Origin: a virus
Taxonomy: Duplodnaviria; Heunggongvirae; Uroviricota; Caudoviricetes
DNA length: 5,564 bases
Direction: 5' to 3' (one strand)
Virus record (IMG/VR): IMGVR_UViG_2681813234_000001
Location: 1 to 5,564 of that record
Shown here piece by piece: positions 1 to 5,564 of the stretch. Numbering within the stretch: position 1 is the stretch's first letter; each line of letters opens with the position of its first letter. The translations under genes were made by a program, and so were the position numbers. A model generated the notes under the pieces. The model was given only the letters and a program-made list of their open reading frames with translations, did not search any database and had not been told where the DNA came from.

Positions 1-147
1 GAAATATTCAACATGCTGCTCATCTGCTTCACGGATGTTGTATCCCGGCTCCAGATAGATTTGCTCCACTGGCACGAGATAGGTTTTGTTAACAGCGATG
101 CCGTTTCGCGTTTCTTTGTCTGAATAGATTTTGCTTAGTGTTTTCAT
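1..147 (-). CDS. hypothetical protein, N-terminal part only (gene runs off the left edge); weak ParB-like N-terminal resemblance
   Basis: ATG at 147-145 (plus 'cat'), preceded by GGTGA about 8 nt upstream on the minus strand; open to position 1. Translation MKTLSKIYSDKETRNGIAVNKTYLVPVEQIYLEPGYNIREADEQHVEYF. Starts 1 nt after the stop (151-149) of the upstream gene, so it is the last visible gene of the leftward operon. The ParB-like hint (LVPVEQIYLEPGYNIR) is from memory only. Confidence 0.4.
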   Translation of the reverse strand, partial: MKTLSKIYSDKETRNGIAVNKTYLVPVEQIYLEPGYNIREADEQHVEYF

Positions 148-148
148 C

Positions 149-340
149 TCATTCACCACTTTCTTCCAATAATTGCTCGTAATATGCGACGTACTCATTA
201 GCAAGATAGTACAGGCGCTCAGCAGACTTGCGTTCTGCATTGCTTAAGTCACCAATAGACTCAATGTTGCCAATTGCATCAACACAATCGTTGAAGTCTT
301 GCTCCGTGTTACGGAATCTACAGTAGGACATGTTTGCCAT
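149..340 (-). CDS. hypothetical small acidic protein (63 aa)
   Basis: ORF-track ORF; ATG at 340-338 with a strong GAGGAG RBS 5 nt upstream on the minus strand; 2-nt gap to the upstream stop (345-343). 13 acidic vs 5 basic residues. No family recognised. Confidence 0.5.
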   Translation of the reverse strand: MANMSYCRFRNTEQDFNDCVDAIGNIESIGDLSNAERKSAERLYYLANEYVAYYEQLLEESGE

Positions 341-342
341 GA

Positions 343-603
343 TTACTCCTCACCACCCTGAAAAATGCCACCAAACTCTTCAACTAGTTCATCAATGCAT
401 TCGTCCGCCTCAGCGCAATTACCAGCAGCACTCAGCAGAATATCAACAGCCTCATCGTCAGGAATGTTGATTGCCGAGAAGAACTCAACAATGCACATTT
501 TCACAACCTGATATTCACCTTCTGTCTGGCAAGAAGCAAAACTGCAAGCGACTGCATCAATCAGCTTGGCTTTGTCATCACTTGGGTTATCAATATCAAA
601 CAT
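343..603 (-). CDS. hypothetical highly acidic cysteine-containing protein (86 aa from ATG 603; track ORF starts at TTG 633)
   Basis: The track ORF 343..633 starts at TTG. The in-frame ATG at 603-601 has an AAGGTG RBS with ~6-nt spacing and lies after the upstream gene's stop (620-618). Product MFDIDNPSDDK...EEFGGIFQGGEE has 21 D/E vs 3 K, no R/H, and 5 Cys. No family recognised. Confidence 0.5.
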   Translation of the reverse strand: MFDIDNPSDDKAKLIDAVACSFASCQTEGEYQVVKMCIVEFFSAINIPDDEAVDILLSAAGNCAEADECIDELVEEFGGIFQGGEE

Positions 604-617
604 TTCCATCACCTTTG

Positions 618-1088
618 TTAGTAAAAAAACCAATTTTCTGTTTCTTGGTTGTGTCCAAAGTTATATTCAATATCTGGCGTTGATGTATCAATATTCTTCA
701 TCCCATCAACAATGGTTGATACAACAGCCAAATCTTGTTTGATTCTCATTAAATGGTATTTCTTCCGGCGCAATAAACTTTCAATGGCAAGTTTCTTCGT
801 TGGAAATGCAAAAGATCTTTCTGCATTTTTTGCTACCTTCTTGATTGCATATCTGTTTATCTTTTTCTTCCATTCCTGTAACCACTGATTTGGTGCTGGT
901 TTTAAATCAACAACCCAATGCGCAGGAACCAACCATGCATAATGCTCTGTCTGATGAAAAGCTATATATTGAAGTGCGAATATTTTGATTCCATCTTCTT
1001 CAACTGTCGCTTGGAATCTCCAGAAAACAGGCATTCCATCATGTTCAGATTCTGATTCGGGGAATGGTACTAACCATGATTTATTCAT
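618..1088 (-). CDS. hypothetical protein (156 aa from ATG 1088; track ORF starts at ATG 1106)
   Basis: Track ORF 618..1106. The second in-frame ATG at 1088-1086 is preceded by GAGGTAA with good spacing, whereas ATG 1106 has no RBS and would sit ~16 nt from the predicted TSS. First gene of the leftward operon. Product MNKSWLVPFPESESEHDGMPVFWRF...ETENWFFY; no family recognised. Confidence 0.55.
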   Translation of the reverse strand: MNKSWLVPFPESESEHDGMPVFWRFQATVEEDGIKIFALQYIAFHQTEHYAWLVPAHWVVDLKPAPNQWLQEWKKKINRYAIKKVAKNAERSFAFPTKKLAIESLLRRKKYHLMRIKQDLAVVSTIVDGMKNIDTSTPDIEYNFGHNQETENWFFY

Positions 1089-1129
1089 CTTTATTACCTC
1101 TAACATTTATTGTTGTTTCTACGTCACTA

Positions 1130-1158
1130 ACTATAAACGCACCATCAATCTACGTCAA
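1130..1158 (-). promoter_or_regulatory. sigma70-like promoter for the leftward operon (TTGACG-17-TATAGT on the minus strand)
   Basis: Minus strand reads cctgTTGACGtagattgatggtgcgttTATAGTtagtg: -35 TTGACG (plus 1153-1158), 17-nt spacer, -10 TATAGT (plus 1130-1135). Predicted TSS near 1122, about 34 nt upstream of ATG 1088. Confidence 0.45.
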
Positions 1159-1166
1159 CAGGAATA

Positions 1167-1175
1167 TGCTAAAAT
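1167..1175 (+). promoter_or_regulatory. candidate extended -10 promoter (TGcTAAAAT) for the rightward block
   Basis: TGcTAAAAT at 1167-1175 with no good -35. It sits about 30 nt upstream of the AGGGGA RBS and ATG 1206, divergent from and overlapping the leftward promoter. Confidence 0.3.
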
Positions 1176-1205
1176 CATGCTAATCAAACAACAGGGGATT
1201 TAAAC

Positions 1206-1325
1206 ATGGGTTCCACCAATTCGCCTTCTCGTTCACGCGCTACTGGCAACACCAAAACTGGCGGCAAAACTGGCGCGGTGAAGCCAAACGGCTCCACCCG
1301 TTCACCATCGCGCGGTAAGAAATAA
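1206..1325 (+). CDS. hypothetical 39-aa basic low-complexity peptide
   Basis: ATG 1206 preceded by AGGGGA about 7 nt upstream. Translation MGSTNSPSRSRATGNTKTGGKTGAVKPNGSTRSPSRGKK, stop TAA 1323-1325 overlapping the next ATG (TAATG). Codon choices (ggc, cgt, cgc, acc) look coding. Below the ORF-track size cutoff. Confidence 0.4.
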   Translation: MGSTNSPSRSRATGNTKTGGKTGAVKPNGSTRSPSRGKK

Positions 1326-1765
1326 TGTTCGGTGCAGACGTTGCCATCATGATCATGTATGTGTTGGGTTTTGCCTGTACGGGCATGGTCGCGTTTCTGG
1401 TGTTCATTCCGGCAATGGTGATGTCTGTGTATCTTGGATGGGTGCTTGTTGATTCATTTCCCGCCGAATATCTGTATTACCTTGCGCAGTCTATGGTCTG
1501 GTTGTTTCCTGCCATTGCACTGCGCAAAAGTACAAAGATGGCGCTCTGCGTGCTGACTATGAGCCTTTACGAATGGCTGGTTGCGATAGAGTCATTCGTA
1601 TGGGAATTTATCACGCCTGTAGAAACGCCGCTTCATGCGCAGTACGCATTTATTATTATCGGCATCCATCTGTTCATCCTTTCCATCACTTTTAAATGGG
1701 GCGGCGAAATTGGACATTATTCTTGGCGTGGTCGCCATCGTTTTTTCGCTGATTCAAATCTATAA
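1325..1765 (+). CDS. hypothetical integral membrane protein (146 aa, about 4 predicted TM segments)
   Basis: Track ORF with ATG 1325 overlapping the upstream stop. Four hydrophobic stretches (VAIMIMYVLGFACTGMVAFLVFIPAMVMSVYLGWVLV, YLAQSMVWLFPAIAL, MALCVLTMSLYEWLVAI, YAFIIIGIHLFILSITF). The 3' end overlaps an alternative open frame (1635..1862), so the true C-terminus is uncertain. Confidence 0.45.
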   Translation: MFGADVAIMIMYVLGFACTGMVAFLVFIPAMVMSVYLGWVLVDSFPAEYLYYLAQSMVWLFPAIALRKSTKMALCVLTMSLYEWLVAIESFVWEFITPVETPLHAQYAFIIIGIHLFILSITFKWGGEIGHYSWRGRHRFFADSNL

Positions 1766-1797
1766 GTGCTGGAAACATATCATCAGCGAGACACGCA

Positions 1798-2082
1798 ATG
1801 AACGGAGCACTAAGACAAGTCGCAGAGCAGATTATAAGCGGAACGACAGGACAGGTGATTGATAAGGCTGGATATGCTTCTATTGGAACCGGCATCGGCC
1901 TGAAAGTTGCAGAGCAAACACCTGTCACGCAATCTTATTTTGAGGCTATGATTCCACACAGCCTGACAGAGTGGGCGGCAGTAGCGTCAATCCTCGGCGC
2001 TCTGTCTCTGGTAATAAAGAATCTGTTTGAAATGTGGTGGAAAGTTAGGGAGTCGAAGAAAAATGGCAGCACCAACACCTGA
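1798..2082 (+). CDS. putative holin-like small membrane protein (phage 21 S / pinholin-like architecture)
   Basis: Track ORF, 94 aa. A weakly hydrophobic G/A-rich TMD1 (AGYASIGTGIGLKVA), a second TMD (EWAAVASILGALSLVIKNLFEMWW) and a charged C-tail (KVRESKKNGSTNT) resemble phage 21 S as I recall it. An alternative GTG start at 1855 (AGGA 4 nt upstream) would give a shorter form. Stop TGA 2080-2082 overlaps the next gene. Confidence 0.45.
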   Translation: MNGALRQVAEQIISGTTGQVIDKAGYASIGTGIGLKVAEQTPVTQSYFEAMIPHSLTEWAAVASILGALSLVIKNLFEMWWKVRESKKNGSTNT

Positions 2083-2455
2083 AGAATTAGTAAGCCAGAT
2101 GGCATCCCGTGGAATGACTATCACCACAACGGATGCGTCCGGTATTCTGTGCCTTGTGACAGCAATCAGTGAATGCCTTGAACTGAACTATCCAAACGAT
2201 GAATGCCGACAAAATGCGATCATGCTGTGGGCTTCCATCCTGATTAGCGCAAATACCTCAGGTCGCTACGTTACCAGTCAGAGTGCACCATCTGGGGCAT
2301 CGCAATCGTTCGCGTATGGCAGTAAGCCGTGGGTGGCGCTGTACAATCAGATGAAACTACTGGATACAGCCGGATGCACTGGGGATTTGGTGGAAGACCC
2401 TGACGGAAGCGGTAAGCCGTGGTTTGCGGTTGTGCGTGGGAGTAAATGTAAATGA
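2063..2455 (+). CDS. putative head-tail adaptor / connector-like protein (130 aa)
   Basis: Track ORF 2027..2455 starts at TTG. The in-frame ATG 2063 has a GGGAG RBS about 11 nt upstream. N-terminus MAAPTPEELVSQM...DASGILCLVTAISECLE resembles gp6-like adaptors, and it is the first of four coupled genes ahead of the major tail gene. The assignment rests on synteny and a weak motif. Confidence 0.45.
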   Translation: MAAPTPEELVSQMASRGMTITTTDASGILCLVTAISECLELNYPNDECRQNAIMLWASILISANTSGRYVTSQSAPSGASQSFAYGSKPWVALYNQMKLLDTAGCTGDLVEDPDGSGKPWFAVVRGSKCK

Positions 2456-2793
2456 CTTCGCTGGCTCGGTTTTCCTATACGCAACCATGCACCATCTGGC
2501 ACAAAAGCGGCACCGACAAGTACGGCAAGCCGACTTTTGACGCGCCAGTGAGCATCATGTGCGATCATGGCTTTAACGATGATGTATCGACTGATGCGAA
2601 AGGTAATGAGATTGTACAGAAGAACACTTTCTGGACAGAATACACTGGCGCTAATGTTGGTGATTACATCATGATTGGCACGGTAACAGAAGCTGACCCG
2701 CTGGCAGCTGGCGCAAATCAGATTCTGAATGTGATTAATTATGGCAACACCTTCAATCGCGCTGAACCGCCTGACTTTGCACTGGTGACATAA
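2452..2793 (+). CDS. putative head-closure / head-tail joining protein (113 aa)
   Basis: ATG 2452 overlaps the upstream stop (ATGA), with GGGAG 9 nt upstream. Size and position between an adaptor-like and a gp10-like gene fit a head-closure protein. Product MTSLARFSYTQPCTIWHKSG... Confidence 0.45.
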   Translation: MTSLARFSYTQPCTIWHKSGTDKYGKPTFDAPVSIMCDHGFNDDVSTDAKGNEIVQKNTFWTEYTGANVGDYIMIGTVTEADPLAAGANQILNVINYGNTFNRAEPPDFALVT

Positions 2794-3191
2794 TGCCAGC
2801 GAAATTAAGAGGTGTCCGGCAGGCTGTAGAGAGAACTTCGCAAATTGTGGATGAGATAATCGCCACGAAAGCTGTGCGTGCAATCAAGTCAGCGACATAC
2901 ATCATCCGCACCGAATCAGCCACGCTAACGCCAATTGATACATCAACGCTGATTAACAGCCAGTTTGATACCGTGGAAGTTAACGGAACGCGAATCACTG
3001 GCAAGGTTGGCTACTCTGCGAAATATGCGCTGTATGTCCACAACGCCAGTGGGAAACTTACAGGCAAACCACGCAGCAACGGTAATGGTACGTACTGGTC
3101 GCCGGGTGGTGAACCGCAATTTTTGACCAAGGGAGCACGACGCACAAAAGACCTTGTTGATGGCGCGATTAAGAAGGAGATGACACTCTAA
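2793..3191 (+). CDS. HK97 gp10-like tail-completion / neck protein (132 aa)
   Basis: ATG 2793 overlaps the upstream stop (TAATG). The pattern ...TLTPIDTSTLINSQ...GKVGYSAKYALYVHNASGK...PQFLTKG matches my memory of the HK97 gp10 family consensus (D-T-G-x-L ... YAxYVE-like ... FL-KG). Confidence 0.55.
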   Translation: MPAKLRGVRQAVERTSQIVDEIIATKAVRAIKSATYIIRTESATLTPIDTSTLINSQFDTVEVNGTRITGKVGYSAKYALYVHNASGKLTGKPRSNGNGTYWSPGGEPQFLTKGARRTKDLVDGAIKKEMTL

Positions 3192-3565
3192 TGAATATGC
3201 TTGAGCTGGTTGATGCATATCTTCAGGATGCCGGATTGTATGATGGCTGGACTTCGCAGTTGCAGTTCTGGAATGATACCGGAGATGGTAACGAGCAATT
3301 TATTGTCCTGCAATCAAACGGCGGCACACAGGTGATGGATGGCCTCGGCGGTGATTTCTATTTCTCGCTGTACGTTGTTGGAAAACAAGGCCAGTACAAT
3401 GTTGCTGATGTTGATGCGAAAGCCAATGAGATTATCGAATACATCAAGACGCACCCGATTGATTCATGCGTTAACTACATCCAGTTGCAGGCTCCGCTCG
3501 GTCGGCCGATGTTGACGGAAGAAAAAAGACCAGTGCATGAGCTTCTATTGCGGGTTGTGAAATAA
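3191..3565 (+). CDS. putative tail terminator protein (gpU-like position, 124 aa)
   Basis: ATG 3191 overlaps the upstream stop (TAATG). It is the last gene before the terminator and the major tail gene; size and position fit a tail terminator. The call is mainly by synteny. Confidence 0.4.
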   Translation: MNMLELVDAYLQDAGLYDGWTSQLQFWNDTGDGNEQFIVLQSNGGTQVMDGLGGDFYFSLYVVGKQGQYNVADVDAKANEIIEYIKTHPIDSCVNYIQLQAPLGRPMLTEEKRPVHELLLRVVK

Positions 3566-3567
3566 AT

Positions 3568-3594
3568 AAAGCCGCATGAAGCGGCTTTTAATTT
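3568..3594. terminator. bidirectional rho-independent terminator
   Basis: aaaGCCGCatgaaGCGGCttt hairpin (stem 3568-3575 / 3581-3588) followed by TTTTAATTT on the plus strand and by TTTATTTATT on the minus strand. It ends both the rightward neck operon and the antisense tRNA. Confidence 0.65.
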
Positions 3595-3670
3595 GGTGGA
3601 CACGGACGGATTTGAACCTTCAATCAGCCGATTATGAGTCGGTTGCTTTAACCAATTAAGCTACGCGTCC
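3594..3670 (-). tRNA. tRNA with anticodon CAU (elongator Met or lysidine-modified Ile2 type), CCA encoded
   Basis: Minus-strand read GGACGCG-TA-GCTT-AATTGGTTA-AAGC-A-ACCGA-CTCATAA-TCGGC-TGATT-GAAGG-TTCAAAT-CCGTC-CGTGTCC-A-CCA. Acceptor stem 7 bp (one G-U), perfect D stem, anticodon loop CUCAUAA with U33 and A37, T-loop TTCAAAT. Caveats: one A-G mismatch in the T stem and an A-C at the first anticodon-stem pair. G1-C72 is paired, so it is not an initiator. Confidence 0.6.
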
Positions 3671-3704
3671 ATAAGTGCTGGTTTAAGCATTGCCAGCGTG
3701 CTTT

Positions 3705-3770
3705 CTTAATATCCAGCCCCGTAACCCATACATACCCCTACATATGATTGCGATAATGCTGGATATTAAG
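3705..3770. repeat. perfect 13-bp inverted repeat (cttaatatccagc / gctggatattaag) around a 40-nt loop
   Basis: Arms at 3705-3717 and 3758-3770 are exact reverse complements. A 13-bp inverted repeat within 100 bp is unlikely by chance in 5.5 kb (rough expectation about 0.01). Confidence 0.55.
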
Positions 3771-4045
3771 TGCTGTGGTGGCCGGTGCTGATCTCCGGCT
3801 TAGGTGCGAAACGGCACGGGTTTACGTACTGGATTCGCCGCATTTTTATAGCGCATCAGCCTGCGCATTCACCACAACGGAAAGAGCACTGCGCGGCACC
3901 TTTCACCAAATCCGCGAGGTCTACGTGTTCAATGCTCTTACCTGTTGCGTGCCGGTTACGCGTCCGGCGTCTTTCGACCGCTAATTGTAATTGAAGGATT
4001 GGATGTAATTAAATGAAATCATGGAACCAATCTCTGTTAAATCCT

Positions 4046-4074
4046 AATCTACACCACAAAATAATCACTGTCAA
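4046..4074 (-). promoter_or_regulatory. sigma70-like promoter, leftward (TTGACA-17-TAGATT), candidate promoter of the tRNA transcript
   Basis: Minus strand reads caggtgTTGACAgtgattattttgtggtgTAGATTagg: -35 at plus 4069-4074, -10 at plus 4046-4051. Near-identical architecture recurs at 5440-5468. Confidence 0.45.
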
Positions 4075-4080
4075 CACCTG

Positions 4081-4089
4081 TGATATAAT
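4081..4089 (+). promoter_or_regulatory. extended -10 promoter (TGaTATAAT) upstream of the major tail gene
   Basis: TGATATAAT at 4081-4089, about 27 nt upstream of the GGAG RBS (4116-4119) and ATG 4126. The same gatataatca motif recurs at 5481-5490. Confidence 0.4.
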
Positions 4090-4125
4090 CACCACGTTAG
4101 CAGCTAACACAATTCGGAGATCGAA

Positions 4126-4842
4126 ATGGCTATTTGTGCAAATGATAAAGGCGTTCTGGTCGGTCGCATGACCCGACTATTCCTTGCTGAAGGGTGCGGC
4201 GACGCAGTCCCGGAAGCAGGAGACTGGAAGTATTTGGGGTCAACCACCAGTAAAGGCGTTGACTACTCGCCGCAGACCACCACGTCGGAAGCTGATACCG
4301 CTGGCGGCTTTGTTTCCACTCTCGTTACCAGCTCTGATATGACCATCAGCGCAGAGGTTGAAATCCGCAAGAATGACCCGAGCGATGAGTTTGGTTTCCA
4401 TCGTCTTGTTGAGATTTACGCCACTGAACTGAAAGCGCGTCGCCAGCCTTCCTTGTGGGTGCGTGAGGTAACTGGTGCAACTATCGTTACCGCGTACTGC
4501 AACATCACTAGTATCAGCTACGAAGGTGGCACGAACGACATCGTTACTGGTAGCCTTGAGTTCAAGGTTTACGATTCTGACAGCGTTACCGTCGAAAGCC
4601 TTGAGCCTCTGGCATTCACTACCGACCTGCAATCAACTGGCAGCACTGGCAGCCCGTTAACTGTTGCTGTTGAAGGTGGCGTTGCTCCTTACACTTATGT
4701 ATGGCGCAAAGATGGTGTGGTTGTAGGCAGCGAATCTGGAGCAACACTGGCAAGCCCAACCGCTGGCGTGTATACCGTCACGGTAACTGATTCGTCTACT
4801 GACCCTGAAGTTATCCTGAGCACGGCTTGCACCGTATCCTGA
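4126..4842 (+). CDS. major tail (tube) protein with C-terminal Ig-like domain (238 aa)
   Basis: Track ORF; ATG 4126 with GGAG 6 nt upstream. Lies just downstream of the neck/terminator genes. C-terminal ~80 aa (LAFTTDLQSTGSTGSPLTVAVEGGVAPYTYVWRKDGVVVGSESGATLASPTAGVYTVTVTDSS) is an Ig-like (Big_2/PKD-like) beta-sandwich pattern typical of siphovirus major tail proteins such as lambda gpV. Confidence 0.6.
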   Translation: MAICANDKGVLVGRMTRLFLAEGCGDAVPEAGDWKYLGSTTSKGVDYSPQTTTSEADTAGGFVSTLVTSSDMTISAEVEIRKNDPSDEFGFHRLVEIYATELKARRQPSLWVREVTGATIVTAYCNITSISYEGGTNDIVTGSLEFKVYDSDSVTVESLEPLAFTTDLQSTGSTGSPLTVAVEGGVAPYTYVWRKDGVVVGSESGATLASPTAGVYTVTVTDSSTDPEVILSTACTVS

Positions 4843-4849
4843 CAAAGAA

Positions 4850-4877
4850 AAAGCCCCGAAAGGGGCTTTGTTTTATT
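4850..4877. terminator. bidirectional rho-independent terminator
   Basis: aaAGCCCCgaaaGGGGCTtt hairpin (GAAA tetraloop 4858-4861) followed by GTTTTATT on plus and TTTTTCTTT on minus. It ends the major tail gene and the leftward cassette, whose stop is at 4875-4873. Confidence 0.7.
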
Positions 4878-5073
4878 CTTGTGGTGGCTCTGGTGATTTA
4901 GCCCAATGGGTGGCTGGAATGCCGTGACAGCGGTCCAATTCACTAACAAACATCTTGCTGCCAATACTATCTACAGCTTTACATACCGCAGTTCTAACAA
5001 CACCGCGAAATGCTGTAAGAACCATCGCTCCTTCTTCCGGCATCTGATCACTACACTTAATCCACTGGATCAT
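4873..5073 (-). CDS. DUF551-like phage protein (66 aa)
   Basis: Track ORF; ATG 5073-5071 overlaps the upstream stop (ATGA). MIQWIKCSDQMPEEG...VLTAF...THWAKSPEPP matches the DUF551 signature as I recall it (WI-x-D-x-LPE-x-G ... HW ... PEPP). Confidence 0.65.
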   Translation of the reverse strand: MIQWIKCSDQMPEEGAMVLTAFRGVVRTAVCKAVDSIGSKMFVSELDRCHGIPATHWAKSPEPPQE

Positions 5074-5213
5074 ATCACCTTATCCTCATCAAAAATCACA
5101 CCAATCACACGAAGCAAGTCTTTCGCCATACGCTCTGCTTCTTCATAGTCGTAACCAGCATCAACATACAATTCAGTGTAGAAAATCAGGTCAGCTTTTG
5201 TTTGTTCGTTCAT
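5070..5213 (-). CDS. hypothetical 47-aa acidic protein
   Basis: ATG 5213-5211 overlaps the stop of the upstream Imm-like gene (ATGA), and its own stop TGA 5072-5070 overlaps the DUF551 ATG (ATGA). Translation MNEQTKADLIFYTELYVDAGYDYEEAERMAKDLLRVIGVIFDEDKVI (12 acidic, 5 basic). Below the ORF-track size cutoff; supported mainly by this double coupling. Confidence 0.45.
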   Translation of the reverse strand: MNEQTKADLIFYTELYVDAGYDYEEAERMAKDLLRVIGVIFDEDKVI

Positions 5214-5404
5214 TTCTTGTCGCCACTTTTAACCAGTGCCCAAACCAGTGCCGCAACCCACCCAATAAAGCTCCATCCGACAAGAATATTCAGTACGCAG
5301 ATTGCAGTCGTGTTTACGTGCTTGCGTTGCAGCGCCACAAAAGATGGAAGAAGATAAGCAAATATCACCAATCCAGCGAAAAGCAACAAAATAACAACAT
5401 CCAT
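5210..5404 (-). CDS. superinfection immunity (T4 Imm-like) family small membrane protein (64 aa)
   Basis: Track ORF; ATG 5404-5402 with GAGGTGA RBS 5 nt upstream. Two TM segments and the motif AYLLPSFVALQRKHVNTTAICVLNILVGWSFIGWVAALVWAL, which matches the superinfection-immunity small-protein family consensus as I recall it (YFLPSIIA-x-R-x-H-x-N ... LGW-x-IGW ... ALIWA). Confidence 0.7.
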   Translation of the reverse strand: MDVVILLLFAGLVIFAYLLPSFVALQRKHVNTTAICVLNILVGWSFIGWVAALVWALVKSGDKK

Positions 5405-5439
5405 AAATCACCTCACTCATATCTCGTTTCGATGACTTG

Positions 5440-5468
5440 AATCTACATCACCACCTCACAGGTGTCAA
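5440..5468 (-). promoter_or_regulatory. sigma70-like promoter, leftward (TTGACA-17-TAGATT), for the three-gene cassette
   Basis: Minus strand reads ggtggtgTTGACAcctgtgaggtggtgatgTAGATTcaag: -35 at plus 5463-5468, -10 at plus 5440-5445. TSS about 29 nt upstream of ATG 5404. Overlaps the inverted repeat GGTGT-ca-ACACC (5461-5472). Confidence 0.5.
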
Positions 5469-5479
5469 CACCACCGAGA

Positions 5480-5488
5480 TGATATAAT
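5480..5488 (+). promoter_or_regulatory. extended -10 promoter (TGaTATAAT) for the downstream rightward gene
   Basis: TGATATAAT at 5480-5488, about 18 nt upstream of AGGA (5506-5509) and ATG 5518. Confidence 0.4.
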
Positions 5489-5517
5489 CAACATCAGTCA
5501 AATTCAGGATGCAAAAC

Positions 5518-5564
5518 ATGAGCAATCGCACGCCACTAACAGAAATCGGAGAGATGCGCATCTC
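5518..5564 (+). CDS. hypothetical protein, N-terminal 15 codons only (position is consistent with a tail assembly chaperone, but too little sequence to say)
   Basis: ATG 5518 with AGGA 8 nt upstream; an alternative ATG at 5509 is in frame. Open to the window end (MSNRTPLTEIGEMRI...). Confidence 0.3.
   Translation, partial: MSNRTPLTEIGEMRI

Follow-up and report, generated by a model that had tools for sequence, protein, structure and literature searches.

The window analysed here, a stretch of 5,564 nucleotides (nt) of viral DNA (IMG/VR record IMGVR_UViG_2681813234_000001, positions 1 to 5,564; Caudoviricetes), carries on its minus strand a gene for a transfer RNA (tRNA) with a CAU anticodon, which is probably a functional accessory tRNA-Ile2 of the phage, supplying it with a decoder for AUA. 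Judging from nucleotide similarity, the source of the window is a Skatevirus-like siphophage of Salmonella/E. coli, as Skatevirus siphophages of these hosts (SeSz-2, KFS-SE2, HC6 and the BASEL phages Bas77, Bas80 and Bas81) cover 82–88% of it at 88–93% identity. An earlier interpretation of the letters alone (the sequence-only reading) had proposed that the CAU anticodon means either elongator tRNA-Met or tRNA-Ile2. These alternatives hold, and are now narrowed to Ile2 by the identity determinants described below. Features are listed in Table 1, and individual loci of relatives are given by their handles (L001 and so on) where they must be told apart.

The tRNA gene

ARAGORN makes a single call in the window, a 77-nt tRNA with the anticodon cat at position 35 and an encoded CCA; when its threshold is lowered to 80%, one further weak call appears in 5.5 kb. 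The Rfam tRNA model (RF00005) aligns over its full length to positions 3597–3670 of the minus strand, with 63.4 bits against a gathering score of 29 (E-value 1.8e-12). This result is beyond chance, and bears out the minus-strand tRNA(CAU) with encoded CCA that had been noticed from the letters alone, ARAGORN accepting the gene. The criteria of a canonical bacterial-type tRNA are found (cloverleaf, stems of 7/4/5/5 base pairs (bp), and the complete set of invariant positions U8, A14, G18G19, A21, U33, G53-T54-T55-C56, A58 and C61), apart from exactly two non-standard pairs in the Rfam alignment, A27·C43 and A51·G63. Both correspond to mismatches pointed out in the sequence-only reading, at the first anticodon-stem pair and in the T stem, respectively. 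The other pairs and bases of relevance here are A3-U70, C4-G69, the wobble G5·U68, U12-A23, C29-G41, G30-C40, U44 and A73.

Identity determinants

The tRNA was aligned with E. coli ileX/ileY (Ile2), metT and metV, and its determinants point to an Ile2-type body, away from Met. The set recognised by the E. coli isoleucyl-tRNA synthetase (IleRS) includes A73, C4-G69, U12-A23, C29-G41, A35, U36, A37 and A38 (PMC9976931), and all the stem and anticodon-arm members that can be read from the sequence are present. In the D loop, the elements G16/U20/U21 are defined on tRNA-Ile1, and position 16 is U in the window tRNA as it is in host ileX/ileY. For the methionyl-tRNA synthetase (MetRS), CAU is the dominant determinant, accompanied in the acceptor stem by C3-G70, U4-A69 and A5-U68 (PMC9976931). 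None of these three pairs occurs in the window tRNA. The pair 3-70 is informative on its own, as G3 or A3 with C70 or T70 is possibly a complete discriminator of tRNA-Ile(CAT) against tRNA-Met and tRNA-fMet genes, which usually carry C3-G70 (Silva et al. 2006); the gene has A3-T70. The features of initiator tRNA-fMet given in the same work (C1xA72, A11-U24 and three G-C pairs at 29-31/39-41) are absent, the corresponding elements being G1-C72, C11-G24 and the stem ACCGA/UCGGC, with an identity to metV of 46/77.

A further line of evidence is provided by TmcA, which acetylates C34 of tRNA-Met (ac4C34) and requires C27-G43, C30-G40 and G44, the G27·U43 pair of E. coli tRNA-Ile2 being an anti-determinant that blocks it (PMC2500205). 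The window tRNA has none of the three (A27·C43, G30-C40, U44). Position 27·43 is never Watson-Crick amongst the copies compared: it is A·C in the window, A·A in KFS-SE2, C·A in Klebsiella phage KP591P1 and in a lambdoid prophage of E. coli MB51, and G·A in the tRNA-Ile of T4. Because TmcA needs C27-G43, the simplest reading of this pattern is an identity feature that would keep the tRNA-Met acetylase off.

The 13-nt core between positions 29 and 41, CGACUCAUAAUCG, is the same as in host ileX/ileY and unlike that of metT. The nearest matches in E. coli genomes are all annotated as tRNA-Ile, and none as tRNA-Met, namely the chromosomal ileY and, from a lambdoid prophage, a tRNA-Ile which lies with a tRNA-Arg between Q and the lysis genes. 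In addition to the anticodon and its loop, the window tRNA shares with ileX/ileY the pairs 29-41, 30-40 and 31-39, C4-G69, U12-A23, A73, U44 and a non-Watson-Crick 27·43 (G·U in ileX). It differs from them in G5·U68 (C-G in the host), A3-U70 (C3-G70 in the host), the A·G pair of the T stem and an AU-rich D stem.

One candidate classifier was rejected. The Rfam model for the Plastid-ycf2 5' untranslated region (RF04354) matches the plus strand at 3596–3670 and gives at best weak support for Ile2, the scores on the antisense strand being 41.3 bits for the window, 43.6 for the prophage tRNA-Ile, 39.5 for ileX, 30.3 for ileY and 32.1 for metT. In its consensus we recognise plastid trnI-CAU in reverse complement, and the model also matches the antisense of ileX, ileY, metT/metU and the MB51 prophage tRNA-Ile, a behaviour indicative of an antisense tRNA(CAU) model.

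Role in AUA decoding

The most likely role of the gene is an optional supply of AUA decoder, optional because SeSz-2 is without the gene and only about a third of the related records have it. Codon usage was compared between the annotated genes of Bas80 (14,930 codons), which has an identical tRNA and stands in for the full genome of the window's own phage, and 43 genes of E. coli K-12 (49 kb, 13,232 codons), and is given per 1000 codons. AUA is used at 11.9 in Bas80 (18% of Ile codons) and at 3.55 in the K-12 sample (5.9% of Ile codons), a 3.4-fold difference, so that the codon to be decoded is commoner in the phage and rare in the host, as is looked for in a codon-compensating tRNA. This excess in a sister phage fits AUA supply. 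AGA and AGG follow the same direction, at 8.6 vs 1.9 and 7.3 vs 0.6, respectively. AUA is found at 6.7 in the 13 open reading frames (ORFs) of the window. Within Bas80 its distribution is uneven, with 0 AUA codons in the capsid and major tail genes, 2 in the portal gene, and roughly 10–40 per 1000 in the tape measure, tail fibre and replication genes. A parallel exists in T4-like phages, for which one study found a CAU tRNA with IleRS signatures in every tRNA-encoding genome, and whose CAU tRNAs have long been interpreted as tRNA-Ile dependent on lysidine. The practical gain from the window tRNA is small: a corrected label, and one further phage with a decoder for the codons that are rarest in enterobacteria, AUA and AGA.

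According to the mechanism we propose, transcription would probably start at the sigma-70-type promoter (4074–4046), cross an untranslated leader containing a tRNA-shaped RNA and a 13-bp hairpin, and end at the hairpin terminator (3588–3568). Host RNase P and 3' exonucleases would then free the 77-nt tRNA, whose CCA is encoded, and host TilS would convert C34 to lysidine, so that IleRS instead of MetRS would charge the tRNA, and AUA instead of AUG would be read. In hosts poor in AUA codons and in the tRNA that decodes them, the additional decoder could ease the translation of the AUA-rich phage genes for tape measure, tail fibre and replication. We infer all of these elements, that is transcription, processing, lysidine formation, charging with Ile and the fitness benefit of the tRNA, from the sequence.

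The sequence-only reading had left the role open between codon supply and the replacement of host tRNAs cleaved by nucleases. Of the two, codon supply is now the better supported. It is improbable that the gene is an anti-defence spare, replacing host tRNA-Ile2 or another CAU tRNA destroyed by an anticodon nuclease or a tRNA-targeting effector, although the idea has precedents: phage tRNAs rescue infection from PARIS (Lys), from PtuAB of retron-Eco7 (Tyr) and from P2-OLD (Thr-UGU), and at this locus the set of tRNAs varies (Ser, Arg, Thr, Asn, CAU) in a way that resembles an arms-race inventory. The weak stems and the non-Watson-Crick pairs 27·43 and 51·63 could also alter recognition by a stem-reading nuclease, OLD being known to read anticodon-stem motifs. 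However, a limited literature search found no nuclease that targets tRNA-Ile2 or tRNA-Met(CAU), the named targets being Lys, Tyr and Thr(UGU), and PMC10264068 mentions neither Ile nor Met. Anticodon-loop escape mutations of phage tRNAs are named in the title of an eLife paper; here, the 7-nt loop CUCAUAA and the pairs 29-41 to 31-39 are the same as in ileX/ileY, and thus no such mutation is seen. Given the Arg(UCU) partner found in relatives and the excess of both AUA and AGA in the phage, codon supply is the simpler explanation.

Several observations weigh against the gene being a functional supplier of AUA decoder. Ile2 and Met cannot be told apart by global identity (58/77 with metT, 56–57/77 with ileX/ileY), which, being 56–58/77 either way, was dropped as a classifier. 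The cloverleaf is weak (−17.4 kcal/mol, compared with −32.8 kcal/mol for ileX) and is not the minimum free energy (MFE) fold, the optimum being −18.7 kcal/mol; this departure from the MFE fold is uninformative on the gene, because host ileX and metT behave alike. The sequence TTGACA-17-TAGATT, the only good minus-strand promoter candidate, lies about 370 nt from the tRNA. The closest overall relative, SeSz-2, shows a clean deletion of the tRNA, so any benefit must be conditional. The TilS determinant C5-G68 is replaced by G5·U68, so that efficient lysidinylation is not assured. Finally, an AAU allele found in some relatives cannot be a lysidine tRNA, meaning that part of the genus uses the gene otherwise. 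The last two points are considered further in the following section.

Lysidine formation and the C34/A34 polymorphism

E. coli TilS has been reported to need both C4-G69, which is present in the window tRNA, and C5-G68, while another TilS ignores the 5:68 pair. The prophage tRNA called tRNA-Ile by the Prokaryotic Genome Annotation Pipeline (PGAP) is likewise without C5-G68 (G5-C68). Within the family the pair is G-C in L010 and A-U in L012, and A5-U68, a negative determinant by which tRNA-Met repels TilS, occurs in L012 alone. We rate the missing C5-G68 as the main uncertainty of the proposed mechanism, and not as a refutation of it. Should lysidinylation fail, the tRNA would accept Met weakly and read AUG.

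The reading that follows from such a failure, in which the gene is an elongator tRNA-Met, unmodified by TilS, charged by MetRS via CAU and used for extra AUG decoding, is very improbable. It would account for the tRNA-Met label given by ARAGORN and by several GenBank records, agrees with the absence of one of the two acceptor-stem determinants of E. coli TilS and with an identity to metT (58/77) as high as that to ileX (56/77), and can draw on the dominance of CAU for MetRS (PMC9976931). The label of ARAGORN, however, derives from the anticodon only, and beyond the anticodon the body has none of the MetRS acceptor pairs nor of the TmcA determinants, its A3-U70 is unusual for tRNA-Met and tRNA-fMet genes, and the Ile determinants C4-G69 and C29-G41 are in place. 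The AAU anticodon of sister phages would be unusable by MetRS. Moreover, AUG is not a rare codon and host tRNA-Met is not limiting. An Ile2 identity is thus retained, and the tRNA-Met annotations in Bas80 and KFS-SE2 should read tRNA-Ile2.

AAU is itself an isoleucine anticodon, and AAT replaces CAT at position 34 (window position 3636) of the homologous gene in HC6, Skate (the type phage), Seszw, L001, L006, L007 and L012, with 3 IMG/VR contigs among the carriers. Amongst the 97 GenBank phage records in which the tRNA is found with an identity of at least 90% (at least 95% in 93 of them), the exact AAT allele is found in 77, about 70 of which are laboratory derivatives of one phage, and the exact CAT allele in 11. 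The 14 related loci show 10 variant positions in all, 4 of them at position 34. A neighbour-joining tree of the adjacent 380 nt does not place the AAU copies in one clade, and the C34/A34 alternation therefore looks recurrent, although the tree is weak evidence which phage mosaicism or recombination could also explain. AAT looks like the derived state because more distant relatives have CAT. In L012, A34 occurs together with A5-U68, a combination that fits a relaxed TilS constraint once C34 had been lost.

We know of no bacterial tRNA-Ile gene that uses an AAU anticodon. An unmodified A34 can read more than U, and we speculate that the AAU tRNA-Ile could be a TilS-independent reader of AUH (AUU/AUC/AUA). 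The CAU and AAU alleles of close relatives represent a natural experiment on the TilS dependence of phage Ile2 tRNAs, and on unmodified-A34 tRNA-Ile in bacteria. A paper on the genome reduction of phage seszw (CiPGr) does not mention the tRNA.

Conservation and loss of the gene

The tRNA is 96–100% identical in 14 related loci, where the adjacent coding sequences are 85–91% identical, and conservation above that of the flanking coding DNA indicates purifying selection and not decay. The A51·G63 pair is unchanged in 15 of the 15 copies examined, which marks it as a fixed trait of the lineage; the T stem is fully paired in the more distant relatives from Klebsiella phages and prophages. The sequence-only reading had offered identity change or decay as explanations for the two mismatches. 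The former is favoured by these comparisons and the latter is not, as A51·G63 is invariant and the non-Watson-Crick 27·43 is family-wide.

That the gene as a whole is a neutral or decaying passenger, which arrived from a tRNA island of a lambdoid or Klebsiella phage along with the non-coding cassette next to it and is now being lost, is very doubtful. The clean loss in SeSz-2 would fit such a history, as would the presence of the tRNA in only 97 of 326 related records (about one third), the low cloverleaf energy, and the mosaic hot spot at 3779–4045. The copy in L010 (12372–12448 of that locus) is changed at three positions, with pairing lost at two of them (G49·A65 and G1·A72), and is possibly eroding. 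Against this stand the identity values given above, both mismatches being fixed and not scattered, and changes at 5-68 that preserve pairing. A concentration of 4 of the 10 variant positions at base 34 is not expected under random decay, and promoter and terminator are intact and conserved.

The non-coding transcription unit

The tRNA seems to form the final cistron of a non-coding unit of the sigma-70 type (Table 1), with an inferred transcript of about 470 nt which is wholly non-coding. A scan with relaxed criteria found no promoter adjacent to the tRNA. Both hexamers of the distant candidate are invariant in 13 relatives while its spacer varies, and homology breaks directly past the −10 (4046), as would be seen for a working promoter where a mosaic joint coincides with the transcription start.

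Table 1 Features of the window discussed in the text.
Feature	Positions	Strand	Basis
Tail completion/Neck1	2793-3191		PHROGs
Conserved virion-module protein, phrog_782 (function unassigned in PHROGs), tail-terminator position	3191..3565	plus	PHROGs, ORF list
GC-rich hairpin with A/T runs on both sides	3568..3588	either strand	Minus-strand terminator scan and sequence
tRNA gene, anticodon CAU, encoded CCA, probable Ile2-type body	3594..3670	minus	ARAGORN, Rfam, alignment with ileX/ileY/metT/metV, conservation
Leader hairpin, perfect 13-bp stem CUUAAUAUCCAGC / GCUGGAUAUUAAG, 39-nt loop with inner hairpin	3706..3770	minus	Sequence, MFE fold
tRNA-shaped structured RNA, four-way junction (predicted)	3774..3876	minus	Alignment, covariation, MFE fold
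boxA-like sequence AGUGCUCUUUCCGU	3877..3890	minus	Invariant in alignment; directly upstream of tRNA-shaped RNA
Putative sigma-70-type promoter TTGACA-17-TAGATT, toward tRNA, about 370 nt upstream	4046..4074	minus	Promoter scans and conservation
Major tail protein, phrog_853, E 1.7e-85	4126..4842	plus	PHROGs, annotation of relatives

At the other end, the hairpin AAAGCCGC-TTCAT-GCGGCTTT (3588–3568) begins 5 nt past the CCA and was called as a minus-strand terminator by the scan; in L010 its stem is kept and the loop alone changed. On the plus strand the stem comes after the stop codon of the ORF at 3191–3565 and is followed by TTTTAATTT, and the hairpin plausibly serves also as terminator for the neck/tail-completion genes of the plus strand, the last of which stops at 3565. 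The bidirectional terminator suggested in the sequence-only reading is therefore reasonable, although the scan flagged the minus strand only.

Between the tRNA and the tRNA-shaped RNA lies the leader hairpin, a 13-bp inverted repeat with the arms CTTAATATCCAGC (3706–3718) and GCTGGATATTAAG (3758–3770) in plus-strand coordinates. One of its stem pairs is U-A in the window, U·G in L001 and C-G in L013; the same right-arm change is found in L006 and L007, both changes in L003, L005 and L012, and L010 has a G·U at another pair. SeSz-2 retains the hairpin though its tRNA is lost, and carries both changes plus a C-to-U at another stem position. These changes fit an RNA made from the same (minus) strand as the tRNA.

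The remainder of the gap between the tRNA and the major tail gene (3671–4125) contains no convincing ORF, and no degenerate tRNA was called in it at the 80% ARAGORN threshold (noise only at 70%). A 74-amino-acid ORF with a GTG start (3770–3994) was rejected: it overlaps nucleotide-invariant blocks which persist even where the major tail gene region is only ~67% identical, as expected of RNA and not of coding sequence. From the promoter to the conserved block next to the tRNA (3779–4045) extends a swap zone of 365–650 nt with unrelated inserts in different relatives; in Bas80 it holds two small annotated plus-strand ORFs, which the window is without. Upstream of it, a conserved block (4046–4125) separates the variable leader from the major tail gene, and holds the minus-strand promoter.

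A tRNA-shaped RNA upstream of the gene

The predicted RNA at the head of the unit follows the order of a tRNA: a 7-bp closing helix (P1, UGUGGUG/CACCACA), a 3-nt linker, a 4-bp hairpin (P2, GCGC/GCGC) with the 8-nt loop AGGCUGAU, a variable arm (P3), and a 5-bp hairpin (P4, GCCGG/CCGGC) with the 9-nt loop AGAUCAGCA, which abuts the 3' strand of P1. The P2 and P4 loops are complementary (GCUGA/UCAGC), the loop-loop helix being too conserved for a covariation test. Two blocks, AGTGCTCTTTCCGTTGTGGTGAATGCGCAGGCTGATGCGC and GCCGGAGATCAGCACCGGCCACCA, are invariant and kept even in KP591P1, whose major tail gene region is only ~67% identical, while the middle part wholly differs between phages. As exact strings, each block is found in at least 120 IMG/VR contigs, and the RNA as such at no fewer than some 200 IMG/VR loci, in 163 phage records and, of 5426 complete E. 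coli genomes, in 629. No RNA is annotated at these matches, the features there being none or hypothetical protein. The 205 copies collected range from 56 to 226 nt (median 124) and have at least 140 unrelated middle cassettes. Covariation in 64 distinct sequences supports P1, P2 and P4: 97% of the cells pair, and 9 doubly changed pairs are found where 1.7 +/- 1.2 are expected (0/500 shuffles), with slid controls falling to 25–49% paired. MFE folds of the copies from the window, HK620 and KP591P1 give the same junction, with a z of −3.3 for the fold.

Rfam has no family for this RNA, and a search with the leader alone at E-values up to 10 gave noise (snoR27 and an 18-nt fragment of rydB). A literature search with the block sequences found no paper, and no link to the leader RNA could be made for a preprint on the Pas small RNA. 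The copies, which are common among enterobacterial phages and prophages, occur in the late leader of HK620, between qut and the late terminator, and downstream of a cI-like repressor in prophages of the SfV/mEp460/CPS-53 kind; in 18 of 133 loci, virulent phages included, the RNA heads a same-strand tRNA array. A boxA-like GTGCTCTTT is found just upstream in 116 of 200 copies, and a −10-like hexamer of its own in 11. In the window this sequence, AGUGCUCUUUCCGU, presumably resembles the boxA of rrn and lambda, and may by analogy shield the untranslated transcript from Rho. It was also observed that T-arm-like tRNA 3' ends (GGTTCGAnTCC), none of which is called as a tRNA by ARAGORN, stand directly upstream of the RNA in L013, L014, L025 and L035. 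In L013, a transfer-messenger RNA ("tmRNA") called by ARAGORN at 3200–3574 has the tRNA(CAU) as its 3' domain and a body spanning the tRNA-shaped RNA, and is most likely a false positive arising from two successive tRNA-like modules.

We tentatively suggest that the tRNA ends a non-coding operon (promoter, boxA-like sequence, tRNA-shaped RNA, hairpin, tRNA and terminator) whose first product could belong to a widespread, undescribed RNA family of phages and prophages, with an acceptor/D/T-like scaffold and an exchangeable cassette in the place of the anticodon arm; independently of this, the C34/A34 switch may be a selected escape from host TilS. If truly undescribed, the RNA would be a new class with a built-in variable module, and both it and the A34 allele could matter more than the tRNA gene. 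It is highly unlikely, on the other hand, that the tRNA acts mainly in cis, as a 3' module giving the tRNA-shaped RNA an RNase P/3'-processing site and a stable end with decoding secondary, since 115 of 133 copies of that RNA have no nearby tRNA and all decoding and identity features, needless for a mere processing signal, are kept, even though the nearby tRNAs are always co-stranded with it in the 18 remaining loci (some 8–22 nt away) and the stable RNAs rnaC and rnaD of T4 are co-located with tRNA genes.

Phage setting and related tRNA islands

The sequence-only reading had located the tRNA between the tail-terminator and major tail genes. A major tail protein is indeed encoded downstream, but the "tail terminator" label of the other neighbour is one of gene order only (Table 1). 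In the public Skatevirus copies (Bas80, EcoIv28_Lewi, KFS-SE2, Skate and HC6) the site is likewise flanked by the phrog_782 gene on one side and the major tail gene on the other. A 100% identical tRNA is public in Bas80 (annotated as tRNA-Met) and EcoIv28_Lewi, and one-base variants are found elsewhere; the labels vary, being tRNA-Met in some records and tRNA-Ile where the anticodon is AAU, with many records carrying no annotation. On sequence grounds, the gene is thus already known and of a common kind amongst phage accessory genes.

The tRNA of KFS-SE2 has the change C43A, and is accompanied by a tRNA-Arg(UCU) and an HNH gene. Partner tRNAs at the same site are also found in Klebsiella phage KP591P1 (Ser(GCU)-Arg(UCU)-CAU), the codons concerned being rare or starting with AG. 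A comparable pair is present in the lambdoid prophage of E. coli MB51, where tRNA-Ile (CAU) is followed by tRNA-Arg(UCU), as in KFS-SE2 and KP591P1, between Q and the lysis genes, and which we take to be of the ileZ-argN-argO type of Shiga toxin (Stx) phages; a literature search for ileZ/argN/argO returned nothing relevant. The prophage tRNA-Ile is identical to that of the window at 60/77 positions (85.5% over a 55-nt BLAST match) and has C27·A43, C4-G69 and G5-C68. It differs in belonging to a temperate phage, in its late-leader location and in its fully paired T stem.

The tRNA-Ile of T4 and the CAU tRNAs of T4-like phages resemble the window tRNA in being phage-borne, Met by anticodon but with IleRS signatures, and in having C29-G41 and a non-Watson-Crick 27·43. 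In the T4 cluster, Ile and Arg(UCU) tRNAs also stand alongside a homing endonuclease and a pair of stable RNAs, for which the HNH gene of KFS-SE2 and the tRNA-shaped RNA described here are parallels. Unlike the window, T4 keeps both C4-G69 and C5-G68 and has eight tRNAs instead of one, and there is no close sequence relationship between the two. In KFS-SE2 (L002, region 4002–4725) the HNH endonuclease gene lies directly past tRNA(CAU)-tRNA-Arg(UCU), and in T4 (L248, region 2174–3034) the GIY-YIG homing endonuclease gene segB is found between the Arg and Ile tRNA genes, so that the tRNA islands of both phages look like landing sites for homing endonucleases.

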